From: an uncultured Bacillota bacterium
Lineage (GTDB): Bacteria > Bacillota_I > Bacilli_A > RF39 > UBA660
Direction of reading: 5' to 3'
Assembly: GCA_945867665.1 (NCBI GenBank)
Contig: CAMBIR010000002.1
Location: 48,039 to 112,038, forward strand
Length of the DNA stretch: 64,000 nucleotides
The translations under genes and the position numbers were made by a program. Shown here piece by piece: positions 22,526-28,383 of this stretch. Each line of letters begins with the position of its first letter. Within the stretch, counting starts at the first letter, position 1. The notes below the pieces were generated by a model. The model did not search any database. It was not told where the DNA came from and saw nothing but the letters and a program-made list of their open reading frames with translations.

Positions 22526-22554
22526 TTGACATTGAAGTGCCTTGATGTTATAAT
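22526..22554 (+). promoter_or_regulatory. Consensus SigA promoter of the F1-like ATPase operon
   Basis: TTGACA (22526-22531), 17-nt spacer, TGt-TATAAT (22549-22554). Confidence 0.7.
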
Positions 22555-22603
22555 TTTATGTAGAGTATAGGAGTGTTCCTAGAGATAAAAGGAGGATATG
22601 ATT

Positions 22604-22849
22604 ATGGAGACAGTTCAAGCAGCAGTTGCTAATTGTATAGGGGTTATGTTAGGACTTGCTTTTTTAGGATTGGGTATTGGTGTTGGTATTCTTGGAGGAC
22701 GCGTTGCTGAAGCGGTAGGGAGAAATCCTGAAACGAAAAATGATGTTGTTCATTCCATTATGACCATTTTAATTATTACTTCAGTATTTTTATTGTTTTT
22801 ATTTTTATTCTGTTTCTTCTTATTATTCTATAATCCTTTAGTAGCATAA
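22604..22849 (+). CDS. F-type ATPase c-subunit-like protein lacking the helix-2 carboxylate
   Basis: GGAGG at 22591-22595 favours the ATG at 22604 over 22598. Helix 1 and the loop are canonical ([27 protein letters not shown]). Helix 2 ([34 protein letters not shown]) contains no Asp or Glu. Confidence 0.7.
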
Positions 22850-22850
22850 G

Positions 22851-23615
22851 ATGACTGTTTTAATTTTATTAGCGATTTTTTTGATTTGTCTACTTGTTGT
22901 GATGATGTTTTTCATTTTAAAAAGTACAGTGAAGAAGATAAATTCTCAGACAAAGTTGTATTTTGTGGATAAGTTGCAAGAGTATGACGAGATGATTGAT
23001 AAAAAGGAAGCCAAATTAAACCTTATTAATCAAGAAATTAAAGAAAAGGAAATAAAGGATTATGAAGAGAAGAAGGGGTTAGAGAAAAAGAATTATGAGT
23101 TTGATTATCAGATTATTGAACTTTTGAATAAGACTAAGTATCAAGATAAGAATTTATTTGAGTTAAATAAAATGATTGATGAGAAATTTTCAATTGATTA
23201 TGTTTGGTTGATTAAAAAGTTTTTAGCTCAGGTTAAGGATGATGGTGCCTATCAATTTTGTCTAGATTTTAGAAAAAAATTTACCAGTGGGGTTATTTAT
23301 GAATTAAAGGTAATGTCAGAAGAAGAACAAAATCGGTATATGAAGCAGTTTTTAACGGAGAAGGAATTCTTTTTGTATGAGACTTATCTTCAGTTAAATC
23401 AGAAGAGTGATATTGATTCTTTTCTTGATTATTTGAATGAGTTAGTTGATTTGAATAATCCTAATATTTTGGTATATGTGGGGGATAAGTCGACTAGTTA
23501 TGATTATTTATCAAAGTATGTTAAGACTGTTTATTCTAAGGAAATTTATAAGGGAATTAAGATAATTTATCGGAATCATATTTATGATTATAGCCTAAAT
23601 GAAAGGAATGTTTAG
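22851..23615 (+). CDS. Single-TM coiled-coil protein, candidate b/delta-like peripheral stalk
   Basis: N-terminal TM, then a K/E-rich predicted coiled coil, then a globular C-terminal part. It ends in GIKIIYRNHIYDYSL, reminiscent of the delta/OSCP C-terminus (G-hydrophobic-x-V-x-x-G-x-x-x-I-D-x-S). Located in the b/delta position upstream of alpha. Confidence 0.4.
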   Translation: MTVLILLAIFLICLLVVMMFFILKSTVKKINSQTKLYFVDKLQEYDEMIDKKEAKLNLINQEIKEKEIKDYEEKKGLEKKNYEFDYQIIELLNKTKYQDKNLFELNKMIDEKFSIDYVWLIKKFLAQVKDDGAYQFCLDFRKKFTSGVIYELKVMSEEEQNRYMKQFLTEKEFFLYETYLQLNQKSDIDSFLDYLNELVDLNNPNILVYVGDKSTSYDYLSKYVKTVYSKEIYKGIKIIYRNHIYDYSLNERNV

Positions 23616-23616
23616 T

Positions 23617-25047
23617 ATGGATAAGGGAATTGATAGTAATGTGGATAAAGTGATTTCTAATATTTACACAAACGAAAATGTTTATGCAACAGGAAGGGTT
23701 ACTCGGGTAAATAAGTATAATATTGAAGTTAGTGGTTTAAATGATGTTTCTTTTTATGAGGCAATTGATGTTAATCATAAGGCTAGTGGCTATGTCATGG
23801 GAATTTATGCGAATAAGATTATTGTTTCTTTAGTAGAGATAAATGAAGAGATTGTTCCTGGGGATATTGTTTATGCTTTAAAGAAGGAATTTAAGTGTTT
23901 ATTTAGCCCGGATTCGATGGGAAAGGTTATTGATATTTTTGGTCATGATTTGATTGCGGGGAAATCTTTTGAGAAAACAGTAGAGGTTCCACTTGAAAAT
24001 CCTACTATTCCTATTATGGATAGAACGGCCGTTACAAGAGAATTTTTAACTGGAATTATTGGTATTGATTTGATGTATCCTATTGGTAAGGGGCAAAGAC
24101 AGTTGATTATTGGAGATAAAAAGACTGGAAAGACGCAAATTGCTCTTGATGCTATTGTTAATCAAAAGGATAAAAAGATGATTTGTATCTATGTTGCTAT
24201 TGGAAAGACAAAGAAGGAAGTTAAGGATATTTATTTTGAACTGACGAAAAGAGGGGCCGCTAGTTATACTATTGTGATTGCTTCATTTAATGATGAACTT
24301 CCAACAAGAACTTATCTTACTCCTTATGTTGCGACTTCGATTGCTGAGATTTTCATGATGCAAAAGTATGATGTTTTAGTTGTTTTTGATGATTTGAAGA
24401 AACATGCAGATGTTTATCGTGAGATTAGTTTGACATCGAAAAAGACACCTGGGCGTGATGCTTATCCATCAGATATTTTCTATACGCACTCTAGACTTCT
24501 TGAAAAGGGGGCTCAACATATTGGGGGTGGTTCAATTACAATGTTACCTATTGTTGAGACAAAGAGTGGTGATATTACAGATTATATTTCTACAAATATT
24601 ATTTCGATTTGTGATGGACAGTTGGTTTTGTCTGCAAAGAGTTTTGCTCGTGGGGAGAAACCGGCAATTAATTATGGATTATCGGTATCTCGTCTTGGAG
24701 GAAATGTACAGACTCCTGATATGAAAAAGGTTGGTAGTAAATTAAGACGTGAATTGTTGTCTTATTTGGAAGTTCGCTCAGTTTATGAGTTAGCTAATAT
24801 TGATGAGATGAGTAAGGAATTGCAGAAAAAGATGCGTGATGGTAAAGTTATGGTCAATAAATTAAAACAGTATAAGTTTAGTCCACGAACAAAGGAAGAA
24901 ATGAAAGCGGAGTTTGCCTTTTTATTCGAGGAGAGTACTGATTTAGAAAAGAAAATAAATGATTCTGATGGTACTCATTCATCTTCGGATGGCAATTATC
25001 AGGAGAAAGATCATTCTAATACTTCTTTAAATATAGAAAAGAATTGA
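23617..25047 (+). CDS. F1 ATPase alpha-subunit-like protein
   Basis: Start moved to the ATG at 23617, 1 nt after the upstream TAG. Motifs: [51 protein letters not shown]-rich C-terminal extension. Confidence 0.85.
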
Positions 25048-25060
25048 GGTGATGATGCAA

Positions 25061-26652: not shown

Positions 26653-26654
26653 AT

Positions 26655-27191
26655 ATGAAGAATGAAGAGATTATTCAAGAATTAATTAGCTTTTTTAGTG
26701 TTGCTGTTGTATTCTTAGTGGTTATTGCTTTGATTTTTATGATATTTTGTAAACGATTTAAGTTTAATAATAAAAATATCGAATTATATGGTTTATTACT
26801 GGATTTAAATACGCCCTCTCTTATTTCCATATCGGCTCTTACCATTAATTATTTATTTTTAGTTTGGTGCACCATTAGTTTTAAAGGAATACAGGTTGTT
26901 TATGTAGCGATTACTTTAATTTTAGTTTTAATTAGTGAAGCAGTTATAGATAATTTTAAATCTCTTCCTTTGTCACTTGGTTTAACAATTGTTAATTGTT
27001 TGTCTATTCAAGTTGTTTATAAGTTATATCAATATTTAGTTGAGGAGAATTTTTCTTACATTTTGTTAATTGTTTTATTTTTATTAATTTTGTTTGTCTT
27101 CTTGTATTATACTTATAATTTATTTAGAGGAATTAATAATGTTGTTGTTGGACATAAATATTTAAAAGGAAAAAGACAATATAAAGTATAA
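26655..27191 (+). CDS. Membrane protein with about five TM helices, function unknown (X0-sector candidate)
   Basis: Starts 2 nt after the epsilon-like stop. About five hydrophobic helices. I see no recognisable a-subunit RLFGN-type stator motif within a helix. Confidence 0.4.
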   Translation: MKNEEIIQELISFFSVAVVFLVVIALIFMIFCKRFKFNNKNIELYGLLLDLNTPSLISISALTINYLFLVWCTISFKGIQVVYVAITLILVLISEAVIDNFKSLPLSLGLTIVNCLSIQVVYKLYQYLVEENFSYILLIVLFLLILFVFLYYTYNLFRGINNVVVGHKYLKGKRQYKV

Positions 27192-27221
27192 ATTTAGTTG
27201 TTTTTTTGAAGGAGGATAATT

Positions 27222-28004
27222 ATGGGAAGTATTAAAAATGTTGTAAAAGTTATGAATTTCCATTCCTTACTTCGAGTAGATAAGGCTAGAAAAAAGGCTG
27301 AAAATTATTTGAAGGTGGGGAATGAAATTACGACAATACTGAGTGAGATTTTATATAATAAAAATATTGTCTTAGATAAAAATATTTTAGTTCCTAATCC
27401 AGAAGCACCGATTTTAGATATTTATATTGCCAATGATTATGGATATTGTGGTGATTTTAATTCTAGTGTTCGAAGGGCAATTTTAAAGAATCCAGATAAT
27501 GATAAAATTATTATTGGGAAAAAAATTGTTTATAAAGATAATAAAACGGTGCTAAAGATTGAAAAAGATGATTTTAATCTTAGGTTTGTTGAGATACAAC
27601 ACTATATTGAAAAGTCACTTTTAGATATGTCTTACCGAGAGATTAATATTTACTATAATCATTATTATTCTTCAACTACATTTGCTTTTAAAAAAATACA
27701 AGCATTTCCTATCGAGTTTAAGGGTGAATATTATGAGGGGAATGATTTTGTATCAGAGACTGATTTAAAGAAAATGTTGAAAAGTTTAGTATCTTTTTAT
27801 ATTTGTTATCAATTAAAAATGTGTGAGTGTATTAGTGAAGCAGCAGAAAACTTAAACCGTAATCAGATTACGAGGGCTGCTTTAGATAAAATTGAGGAAA
27901 AAGAAGAAGAGGAAAGAGCGATGGTACTTCGAAAGAAGAATGAAGAAGCGGCATTTAAGAATGTTGAAAATTATAAAAAGGTTGTACAAATAGGTGATTC
28001 ATAA
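27222..28004 (+). CDS. F1 gamma-subunit-like protein (short)
   Basis: GGAGG RBS. The N-terminal IKNVVKVMNFHSLLRVDKARKKAE resembles the gamma N-terminal helix. IANDYGYCGDFNSSVRRAIL matches gamma's (S/T)DRGLCGxxNSN region. C-terminal helix with RNQITRAALDKIEE. Confidence 0.6.
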   Translation: MGSIKNVVKVMNFHSLLRVDKARKKAENYLKVGNEITTILSEILYNKNIVLDKNILVPNPEAPILDIYIANDYGYCGDFNSSVRRAILKNPDNDKIIIGKKIVYKDNKTVLKIEKDDFNLRFVEIQHYIEKSLLDMSYREINIYYNHYYSSTTFAFKKIQAFPIEFKGEYYEGNDFVSETDLKKMLKSLVSFYICYQLKMCECISEAAENLNRNQITRAALDKIEEKEEEERAMVLRKKNEEAAFKNVENYKKVVQIGDS

Positions 28005-28168
28005 TGAATAAGGAAAAAAATCAAGAGGATATCATTGATATTTTGAAAAGTGCTCAGGAGAAAGTTTCAGGAATTGTTTTACCATCAATGGGCCTTTTAG
28101 ATAATGAGGAGAGTATCTATGTTGATGGAAAGGAAGTCATCAGTCAAAAAGATGATAAGGAGGAGTAG
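28004..28168 (+). CDS. 54-aa acidic protein, function unknown
   Basis: Not in the track because it is under 60 aa. Its ATG shares the A of the gamma-like TAA (ATAATG). Product: MNKEKNQEDIIDILKSAQEKVSGIVLPSMGLLDNEESIYVDGKEVISQKDDKEE. Its 3' end carries the AAGGAGG RBS of flp. Confidence 0.35.
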   Translation: MNKEKNQEDIIDILKSAQEKVSGIVLPSMGLLDNEESIYVDGKEVISQKDDKEE

Positions 28169-28170
28169 GA

Positions 28171-28383
28171 ATGTTAAATAGAAAAGGTCAAACTTTGGTA
28201 GAATATGTGCTTATTATTTCATTAGTTACAGTTGTTGCTATTGCGGCTGTTCGTATTTTTGGTGGGTATTTGAAAGATTCTATTACAAAGATGAGTTGTT
28301 CAATGGTTGGTAAGGAGTATGTTGAGGCAAACACGATTGGTAAAGGATACTGCAAGGGGGATGAAGACAAGTTATTTGAGTAG
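28171..28383 (+). CDS. flp: Flp/Fap-family type IVb prepilin
   Basis: MLNRKG-QTLVEYVLIISLVTVVAIAAVRIFGGYL: basic leader ending in Gly, then xTxVEY and a hydrophobic helix, which is the Flp signature. 70 aa. Starts 2 nt after the preceding stop. Confidence 0.8.
   Translation: MLNRKGQTLVEYVLIISLVTVVAIAAVRIFGGYLKDSITKMSCSMVGKEYVEANTIGKGYCKGDEDKLFE

Follow-up and report, generated by a model that had tools for sequence, protein, structure and literature searches.

Gene content and layout of the operon

A block of genes encoding relatives of F-type ATPase subunits lies in the 64-kb stretch of contig CAMBIR010000002.1 (uncultured Bacillota bacterium, GTDB lineage RF39; UBA660) that was analysed in this work and is called the window below. 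The window has a G+C content of about 30% and a strongly positive GC skew. The block is preceded by a sigma-70-type promoter on the forward strand (22526..22554), in which TTGACA and TGtTATAAT are 17 nt apart. This site has an extended -10 TG, matches the consensus at 12 of 12 positions and was the top-scoring one in a scan of 7.5 kb (21500-29000). Downstream of it nine open reading frames (ORFs), all on the forward strand, follow in the order c-like, 254-aa, alpha, beta, 83-aa, 178-aa, gamma, 54-aa and 70-aa. Except for 30 nt on the 5' side of the gamma gene, the junctions are gaps of 1-2 nt or overlaps of 1-17 nt: the beta and the 83-aa genes are joined by a 4-nt ATGA overlap, and the 54-aa gene overlaps the gamma gene by 1 nt and is followed, after a 2-nt gap, by the 70-aa gene. 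Behind the last gene there is an intrinsic-terminator-like hairpin with a U-run (28445..28505, forward strand; RNA fold -29.2 kcal/mol, z = -3.0), whose long stem (28445-28491) is followed by UAUUUCUUUUUUU. Taking the single promoter, the coupled junctions and the single terminator as signals of co-transcription, the block reads as a nine-gene operon. An initial annotation of this DNA had described the consensus promoter and a non-canonical F-type cluster of seven genes in permuted order. The promoter, the order and all seven ORFs were found as described, but the operon is longer by two genes, those of the 54-aa and the 70-aa proteins.

The alpha-like subunit (482 aa, 23599..25047) matched Pfam ATP-synt_ab (PF00006) at 3e-71 and scored below the cut-offs of all equivalog models: the top NCBIfam model was atpA PRK13343 with 427 bits (cut-off 554), followed by MMOB1660 with 386 (cut-off 600), alt-F1Fo with 359 (cut-off 750) and MSC_0619 with 309 bits (cut-off 520). 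Against the PDB the best match was the alpha subunit of Fusobacterium nucleatum (303 bits), with Bacillus PS3 alpha at 296 bits and the alpha of the Mycoplasma mobile G1-ATPase at 256 bits. The PDB alignment begins at residue 11, therefore the N-terminal delta-binding segment is retained. The protein carries GDKKTGKT and the arginine finger SVSRLGG, and it ends in a short (~40 aa) low-complexity tail. The beta-like catalytic subunit (25049..26404; 447-451 aa, with a start somewhere in 25049-25061) matched ATP-synt_ab at 4e-67 and TIGR01039 (atpD) with 480 bits, above the cut-off of 463; canonical PDB chains gave 385-399 bits and G1 beta 306 bits. Its motifs include the P-loop, the Walker B sequence LLFIDN and EELSEED. 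Judged by their translations, in which the P-loop, the catalytic Glu, the Walker B Asp and the alpha arginine finger are all present, alpha and beta are catalytically intact alpha3beta3-type subunits. This agrees with the initial annotation, every one of whose quoted motifs was recovered.

For the less conserved subunits, family profiles were compared by hhalign with reference profiles built from annotated atp operons, with mismatched pairs serving as negative controls (P 0.15-0.94). The gamma-like subunit (260 aa, 27222..28004) was readily recognised both by Pfam ATP-synt (PF00231; 1.2e-21, 78 bits, cut-off 39.9) and by hhalign against canonical gamma (P 6e-20), which was used as a positive control. 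Gamma and c both fail their NCBIfam equivalog cut-offs. In a metagenome assembly of a 99.6%-identical strain (L001, 13624-14411) a frameshift divides the gamma-like gene into ORFs of 89 and 187 aa, which may be an assembly error or a strain-level inactivation; the gene is intact in the window and in another locus (L002).

The c-like proteolipid (81 aa, 22604..22849), whose ATG at 22604 has AGGAGG 8 nt upstream, matched Pfam ATP-synt_C (PF00137) at 1.3e-8, the PDB profiles of Acetobacterium woodii c1/c2 at 6e-14 and 9e-9, and in hhalign, as a further positive control, canonical c at P 2e-13. The GxGxGxG motif of helix 1, which packs the ring, and the RNP loop, which contacts gamma/epsilon, are invariant, and the protein has the long 'LLF(A/Y)NPF' C-terminus typical of c subunits of Na+-type anaerobes. 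The ion-binding Glu of the A. woodii and Ilyobacter tartaricus c subunits aligns to Ser62 (numbering of the 83-aa ORF that begins at 22598), and the Na+ ligand Gln32 of I. tartaricus is replaced by Val29, as read from the profile alignment. The ion-site column holds E or D in 10 of 10 reference c subunits, a set made up of canonical, mycoplasma Type 1 and N-ATPase sequences, and in none of six family members, which have S, A or T instead. Nor does helix 2 contain another acidic residue in any of these six. The loss of the carboxylate is invariant in the subfamily of the window and extends to the c subunits of distant relatives. Because the ring has no protonatable or Na+-binding carboxylate, the enzyme would be unable to make ATP from, or to pump, H+ or Na+ by the known mechanism. 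We know of no F-, V- or A-type ring that functions without a membrane carboxylate. This loss is the strongest argument against a housekeeping synthase or pump. It had been overlooked in the initial annotation, which was right about the c-like gene itself.

The remaining F-type assignments are more tentative. The 254-aa protein (22851..23615) was assigned from its AlphaFold2 model, its position and hhalign. In the model a transmembrane (TM) helix is continuous with a long helix (residues 2-73) and is followed by a helical bundle (101-201; predicted local distance difference test score, pLDDT, 84-93 over 130-200) and by a beta-containing, poorly modelled C-terminus. Residues 224-252 align to the 'IGG..I..GD.VIDGS' motif at the C-terminus of delta (hhalign P 0.006, controls 0.23-0.33), and the comparison with b gave P 0.05. 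In all relatives the gene fills the b/delta slot between c and alpha. With narrow and with diverse family profiles there was no match in Pfam, NCBIfam or PDB sequences, and the model had no significant Foldseek match; the sixth entry, at E 3.5, was the yeast chain 6cp6_Y, which we take to be OSCP. These observations suggest a peripheral stalk anchored in the membrane, in which b-like and delta-like parts are fused and which would hold the alpha N-terminus. The delta-like C-terminus noted earlier thus receives weak support, in the correct register.

The same is true of the 83-aa protein (26401..26652), which had been described as an epsilon-like beta-sandwich. It aligns collinearly (1-87/1-87) with the epsilon N-domain at P 0.01 (controls 0.15-0.94), it is encoded directly after beta in 14 of 14 related loci, and neither its narrow nor its diverse family profile matched anything in Pfam, NCBIfam or PDB sequences. 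It probably corresponds to the N-terminal beta-sandwich of epsilon without the C-terminal helices.

The 178-aa membrane protein (26655..27191) had been credited with about five TM helices, and the operon with no a subunit. It is indeed a membrane protein, but its AlphaFold2 model (pLDDT 70.7, predicted TM-score 0.59) has six helices (3-34, 41-49, 53-75, 81-99, 104-131 and 135-173), which form one TM helix, a short amphipathic one and a pair of hairpins. This layout is known for subunit a. The Foldseek search of the PDB was headed, non-significantly, by E. coli subunit a (8dbw_a; E 1.2, prob 0.69, TMq 0.49); for Bacillus PS3 a the TMq was 0.51. Of the top 50 hits at least 10 were a subunits, and all had E values of at least 1. 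There was no sequence match to a in Pfam, NCBIfam or the PDB, and hhalign against a gave P 0.16. Arg158 is one of three columns that are invariant across 178-aa subfamilies of 15-27% identity, and it is situated in the last helix, where the hydrophobic stretch ends. The essential Arg of subunit a is in mid-membrane in the penultimate helix. The absence of an a subunit has thus become doubtful, and the 178-aa protein may be an a-like stator partner of the ring. When the 254-, 83- and 178-aa proteins were compared by hhalign with single E. coli subunits, no match was found.

The two genes added to the operon encode small proteins. The 54-aa acidic protein (28004..28168) has a conserved LPxMG motif; its gene occupies the same position in the loci of nine out of nine species (24-45% identity) and evolves with a dN/dS of 0.24-0.32. 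The 70-aa protein (28171..28383) resembles Flp/type-IV prepilins: it passes the Pfam Class_IIIsignal (PF04021) cut-off with 26.9 bits against 23.7, matches Flp_Fap at 6.8e-5 with 23.0 bits, which is under the cut-off of 32.2, and N_methyl at 0.06. It consists of a short basic leader, a G/XXXXEY prepilin motif (G/QTLVEY), a single TM helix and a tail of 35 aa that contains two Cys, and its N-terminus, MLNRKG/QTLVEYVLIISLV, is invariant in eight sequences. Across the subfamily it is 80-97% identical, exposed tail included, a conservation equal to that of alpha and beta. Such uniformly high conservation argues for an integral subunit of the complex, as opposed to an exposed pilus fibre.

Conservation, relatives and phylogeny

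In a survey of one genome per GTDB species the operon was found in nine species, represented by metagenome-assembled genomes (MAGs) of human (Hadza), ruminant and other gut origin. The nine genes occur in identical order in all nine, and the flanks vary. The c subunit is 88-100% identical across the nine species. Compared with their most distant orthologues in this subfamily, the proteins of the window had identities of 88% for c, 84-89% for beta, 80-82% for alpha, 80-88% for the Flp-like protein and 80% for gamma, followed by 67% for the 83-aa, 58% for the 254-aa, 53% for the 178-aa and 24-38% for the 54-aa protein. Synonymous differences per site (pS) were saturated (0.55-0.84), and nonsynonymous differences (pN) were lowest for c (0.006), followed by 0.019 for the Flp-like gene (at a pS of 0.84), and highest for the 54-aa gene (0.31); the c protein can be 100% identical at a pS of 0.65. 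As pN is far below the saturated pS in all nine genes, the operon is evidently under strong purifying selection throughout and is not decaying.

The individual proteins have many relatives. The 254-aa family has 340 members, all of 254-255 aa, and there are 204 relatives of the 178-aa protein; the sources of both sets are metagenomes and MAGs that bear the name 'Bacilli bacterium' or 'Erysipelotrichaceae bacterium'. An exhaustive search with alpha returned representatives of eight 50%-identity clusters (50-62% identical, 468-582 bits), after which the scores fell steeply to canonical atpA sequences with at most 327 bits. The nearest alphas outside the family all pass the atpA cut-offs, whereas the family member P0244 fails them, like the alpha of the window. 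Identity to E. coli AtpA is 28-36% for the alphas of the family and about 48% for canonical representatives, and many of the family alphas carry low-complexity tails of 100-900 aa. These highly variable, in part repetitive tails are acidic, Pro-rich or Lys-rich in P0241-P0246, where the total length reaches 1,365 aa, and in P0243 an N-terminal extension of about 340 aa takes the place of the tail. P0248, which has 438 aa and shares 50% identity with the alpha of the window, shows SRSSMRTDN instead of GLSVSRLGG and thus a degenerate arginine finger region; the family may include inactive variants.

Beyond the subfamily, one layout of 11 genes was seen at five of the five distant loci examined (alpha 50-63% identical). 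It starts with genes for proteins of ~1,750 and ~490 aa, continues with c (81 aa), the stalk protein (250-255 aa), alpha, gamma, beta, an 83-92-aa protein and a 169-182-aa membrane protein, and ends with genes for a 245-281-aa protein and a giant of 3,240-3,550 aa. The giants carry Laminin_G_3, Glug or glycine-rich domains. Where translations were read, N-terminal TM anchors were present in the ~1,750- and ~490-aa proteins (L013), in the 245-281-aa protein and in the giants of L013, L014 and L017. No homologues of the giant proteins are encoded in the window. The 54-aa and Flp-like genes are confined to loci of the window's subfamily and are absent from those of the broader family. Since the distant relatives keep the order c, b/delta, alpha, gamma, beta, epsilon, membrane protein, this canonical-like order is the ancestral one. 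The order of the window, with gamma behind the membrane protein, is then a lineage-specific rearrangement in a subfamily that gained the 54-aa and the Flp-like genes.

Neighbour-joining (NJ) trees of alpha and beta (100 bootstraps) were built from seven family members, the enzymes of E. coli, S. aureus, E. faecalis, Monoglobus, Acetoanaerobium and F. vincentii, two mycoplasma Type 1 enzymes, two N-ATPases and the Type 3 enzyme of M. gallopavonis. The Type 2 enzymes of M. mobile and M. pulmonis were outside the trees, and Type 2 was compared by PDB bit scores. The family was monophyletic with 100% support and formed a long branch outside a clade of canonical enzymes and N-ATPases; the split from this clade was supported by 100% for beta and by 56% for alpha. 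Alpha and beta are therefore not nested in the canonical Firmicute F1 clade. The window subunits are 30-37% (alpha) and 38-45% (beta) identical to canonical ones, which are 57-78% identical among themselves, and 33-37% (alpha) and 38-40% (beta) identical to Type 3. The divergence from canonical F1 is thus about equal to that of mycoplasma Type 3 and exceeds that of the N-ATPases, which group with the canonical enzymes, apart from this family. The branch that joins the family to Type 3 is very short (0.007) and lies between two long ones; this joining is likely to be long-branch attraction.

Possible function and comparison with known rotary ATPases

On balance, we lean towards the view that the operon encodes a highly derived rotary ATPase of F1Fo descent which is driven by ATP and uncoupled from ions, and which represents a new, apparently undescribed family confined to uncultured gut Bacilli. 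The catalytic head, central stalk, ring, peripheral stalk and probably an a-like stator would still assemble, and ATP hydrolysis would turn gamma, epsilon and the c ring against the stator. Torque or cyclic motion would be applied mechanically to membrane-anchored extracytoplasmic proteins, which are proposed as the load because they are consistently co-encoded. In the window the load would be the Flp-like single-TM protein with a small acidic protein, and in sister clades four N-terminally anchored proteins, including the giants of 1,750 and 3,200-3,550 aa.

To our knowledge, every rotary ATPase of the F, V or A type relies on the carboxylate of the c ring to link its rotation to a flow of ions, and the mycoplasma Types 2 and 3, in which the Fo sector was discarded and which were reported to have no counterpart elsewhere, are the only repurposed F1-type motors described. 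What would be new here is that the c ring, the stalk and probably an a-like stator were kept, yet the ion site was abolished. Our literature search (F1-like ATPases in Erysipelotrichia, c subunits without the carboxylate, links to giant proteins) found no such system outside mollicutes, and the 2026 paper on Type 3 makes no mention of non-mollicute homologues. If the view is correct, the operon would be a natural experiment on the uses of a rotating proteolipid ring beyond ion transport, and a candidate case of rotary ATPases being connected with giant surface or pilin-like proteins in walled bacteria. With hundreds of 90%-identity clusters the family is widespread in human and ruminant gut Bacilli; names such as 'F0F1 ATP synthase' would cause it to be counted as oxidative or ion-motive capacity in reconstructions from gut MAGs.

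Several points weigh against an ion-uncoupled motor. Beta passes the atpD equivalog cut-off (480 vs 463), and a functional ATP synthase would likewise possess an equivalent of each subunit. If the genomes had no other F- or V-type ATPase, it would become more plausible that the operon serves bioenergetics through an unorthodox ion site; no second F-type, atp or ntp (V-type) locus was found in the 64-kb window. The epsilon, b/delta and a assignments are based on hhalign P values of 0.01, 0.006 and 0.16, on Foldseek E values of at least 1, and on position. The proposed link to the Flp-like and the giant proteins is one of guilt by association, and the giants are absent from the window.

A bolder version of this view has the ion-blind motor, in a walled and spore-forming gut lineage, retain ring, stator and stalk and operate the Flp-like helix (perhaps in or on the c ring) in this lineage and giant surface proteins of 200-400 kDa in sister lineages, as a new class of surface machine for motility, adhesion or filament handling; it would also be a free-living model for the origin of the mycoplasma gliding and MIB-MIP ATPases. 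We regard it as speculative and rather doubtful.

Among the alternatives, the first is a housekeeping, fast-evolving F1Fo ATPase or synthase that moves H+ or Na+ through an unorthodox site, which could be a Thr/Ser of c helix 2, Arg158 or the membrane Glu of the Flp-like protein. The operon shares with canonical F1Fo enzymes (atpIBEFHAGDC) the alpha and beta motifs, a recognisable gamma and the c hairpin with its glycine motif and R(N/Q)P loop; among them the Na+-type F1Fo enzymes of anaerobes (A. woodii, I. tartaricus, Fusobacterium) are especially close and supplied the top PDB matches (A. woodii c, F. nucleatum alpha). There is a candidate equivalent for every canonical subunit, including an a-like protein with an invariant Arg in its last helix, and the relatives keep the order c-(b/delta)-alpha-gamma-beta-epsilon of canonical operons. 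That beta passes TIGR01039, that NCBI labels the relatives 'F0F1 ATP synthase subunit alpha', and that a second atp or ntp locus is absent from the window, would also fit. Other features differ. The c subunits of canonical enzymes have the membrane carboxylate, which is present in 10 of 10 references and absent from all family members, and no ring is known to us to work without it; the I. tartaricus ligand Gln32 is replaced as well. Instead of separate b and delta subunits there is apparently one 254-aa fusion, epsilon has no C-terminal helices, atpI is absent, and the a-like protein is short (178 aa), is encoded after epsilon and carries no a-subunit sequence signature, its Arg158 being at the hydrophobic end of the last helix, unlike the mid-membrane Arg in the penultimate helix of a. 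Neither the window nor its relatives have the complete gene order atp(I)BEFHAGDC, and there are additional genes, those of the 54-aa and Flp-like proteins here and of giant surface proteins in the relatives, where the locus is embedded among them. Alpha, gamma and c miss their equivalog cut-offs, alpha and beta are further from the canonical subunits than those of the N-ATPases are, and alphas of relatives have disordered tails of up to 900 aa. Taken together, these data make a housekeeping enzyme unlikely.

The N-ATPases (atpDCQRBEFAG) are similar in that they are encoded by a second, laterally mobile F-type operon of permuted order in which beta and epsilon are together. Their c subunit keeps the carboxylate (references from Cereibacter and Picosynechococcus), in contrast to its loss here; they have AtpQ/AtpR, normal a and b and no delta, and differ in gene order and accessory genes. 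The alt_F1F0 cut-offs were missed by beta (424/752 bits) and c (14/131 bits) as well as by alpha.

The initial annotation had likened the cluster to the F1-like X0 ATPases of Types 2 and 3 in mycoplasmas. As an analogy between repurposed rotary ATPases this is apt, and in its proposed working, as an F1 motor tied to surface proteins, the operon comes closest to these systems, though it retains an Fo-like sector. It does not belong to either type: it misses their cut-offs and differs in gene order and accessory genes. Type 3 (MSC_0618-0624) is required for the MIB-MIP antibody-cleavage system (PMC3369863, PMC12994834). Its genes are ordered 12-TM, 19-kDa, gamma, epsilon, 87-kDa membrane protein, alpha, beta (PMC12994834), and this order was also seen in the annotated locus of M. 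gallopavonis. In that locus (L018, PLSDB 'plasmid 2') an IS3 element lies between the MSC_0620 and alpha genes. Type 3 is without c-, b/delta- and a-like proteins, and its alpha is without the N-terminal delta-binding helix (PMC12994834), all of which the operon of the window has, b/delta and a as candidates. The likeness consists in a divergent F1-type set of alpha, beta, gamma and epsilon that is accompanied by membrane or surface proteins in low-GC, host-associated Bacilli or Mollicutes and presumably works as an ATP-consuming motor, not as a synthase. The Type 3 cut-offs were missed by alpha (MSC_0619, 309 vs 520 bits) and beta (MSC_0618, 409 vs 570), none of the nine products matched the NCBIfam models of MSC_0620-0624 at E <= 1, and neither in the window nor at any of 14 related loci were MIB-MIP genes found beside the operon. 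With Type 2, the G1-ATPase of the M. mobile gliding motor (MMOB1660/1670; PDB 9io5; PMC11864180), the parallel is an F1-like hexamer that is thought to transmit force to giant surface proteins; the sister clades here are flanked by genes for giants. The G1 beta has an N-terminal extension of about 300 aa (784 aa in total, 9io5_A), whereas the beta of the window has 451 aa; G1 forms a soluble, chained dimer and has no c ring, whereas a c-like subunit is present here; and the organisms studied here, unlike its host, have cell-wall genes. Cut-offs were missed again (MMOB1660, 386 vs 600 bits; MMOB1670, 374 vs 850).

These comparisons bear on a second alternative, in which the operon is a true relative or evolutionary intermediate of Types 2 and 3 whose Fo-like parts were later replaced in mycoplasmas. 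The family and the M. gallopavonis Type 3 enzyme are on the same side of the NJ split (100% for beta, 56% for alpha), both belong to low-GC, host-associated lineages of Bacilli or Mollicutes, and both are tied to surface proteins, MIB-MIP and gliding legs on one side and giants and the Flp-like protein on the other. The joining branch of 0.007 has, however, the pattern of long-branch attraction, and the identity to Type 3 is no higher than that to canonical enzymes. M. mobile Type 2 chains score under canonical ones (256 vs 303 bits for alpha, 306 vs 399 for beta), and on the MMOB1660 model canonical alphas, with 408-470 bits, equal or beat the window alpha. With the NCBIfam Type 2/3 cut-offs missed, MSC_0620-0624 unmatched, and gene order and accessory proteins unrelated, true kinship seems a shade less likely still than a housekeeping role.

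A third alternative is a pilus motor, in which the F1-type ATPase and the c ring replace the TadA/PilB ATPase and the platform in the assembly or rotation of an Flp-like filament. The Flp-like gene is the last in the operon and translationally coupled, its product has the G/XXXXEY motif and passes the class-III signal cut-off, and a ComGC-type pilin gene in the window (see below) implies a prepilin peptidase in the cell. Against this, the whole 70-aa protein is 80-97% conserved, which is atypical of surface pilins and closer to what an integral subunit would show, and the broader family functions without any Flp-like gene. Tad genes or genes for a secretin, a platform or a prepilin peptidase (peptidase A24) were not found in the window, nor consistently beside the operon in relatives. 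We consider this explanation improbable. That the operon is a decaying, functionless remnant of an ATP synthase operon, as the lost c carboxylate, the scrambled order and the frameshifted gamma of the L001 assembly might suggest, can practically be dismissed, for none of the nine ORFs is disrupted in the window or in nine species, every gene has a pN far below its pS, with c 100% identical at a pS of 0.65, and the consensus promoter and the coupled junctions are in place.

Neighbouring genes and other features of the window

The initial annotation had considered that the block, which lies between a xer-type recombinase gene and a gene-poor gap holding a decayed gene, might have been acquired as an island. 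This origin was rejected: the GC content of the operon is like that of its surroundings, with no island signal in the composition of the window, and xer is unlinked to the cluster elsewhere. The gap (28384-28893) results from a strain-level deletion of about 780 bp, with a breakpoint near 28572-28614, relative to a 99.6%-identical metagenome strain (L001). That strain carries at 14980-15762 a minus-strand PDDEXK_2 (Rpn/transposase-like) gene, of which the window keeps the 18-aa remnant.

In five sister species a pair of genes encoding an N-terminally anchored protein of 157 aa and an acidic one of 78 aa is located directly 3' of the operon. When the genes downstream of the operon in L006-L011 were used as tblastn queries, they matched the window only at 44670-45376 (1e-21 to 4e-49 and 2e-7 to 2e-17), where the pair is found on the forward strand (44670..45376) beside an RNase J gene (45385-47076, reverse strand). 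The pair adjoins the operon in the five sisters and is 16 kb away from it here, which points to a rearrangement; the intervening ~16 kb contain housekeeping genes (htpG, rbfA, truB, ftsAZ, tRNAs). Neither product has a Pfam match, and hhalign detected no kinship among the 150-aa and 80-aa neighbour products, the 54-aa protein and the 245-281-aa protein of the relatives. The pair could be accessory genes or mere syntenic neighbours.

A 124-aa ComGC/type-IV-pilin-like gene (37683-38057, forward strand; MNNKG/FTLIEVL, Pfam N_methyl 1.2e-6) is located shortly 3' of ftsA-ftsZ, with a 66-aa ORF between, and is followed by ORFs of 212 aa and 394 aa, the latter Glu/Lys-rich, without annotation. Since this pilin is encoded in the window, a prepilin peptidase is expected somewhere in the genome.

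A 233-aa sigma-70-family factor with an N-terminal hydrophobic extension like that of pro-sigma-E/K (40950-41651, forward strand) and a CotZ-like spore-coat protein (60638-61060, reverse strand; Pfam 2e-12) would fit a spore-forming Firmicute. Five tRNA genes (Rfam RF00005, 62-78 bits) are clustered at 43003-43431 on the forward strand. The forward-strand stretch 3860-11910, with 23% GC, encodes a YfhO-family membrane protein (891 aa) and a GtrA-GT2 fusion, together with a 492-aa ORF and two adjacent 449-aa ORFs, all three without a Pfam match; it may be a cell-envelope glycosylation island. Several PLSDB plasmid records, which were a source of reference atp operons, proved to be mislabelled chromosomes or fragments (mycoplasmas, Fusobacterium, E. 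coli, Neisseria).

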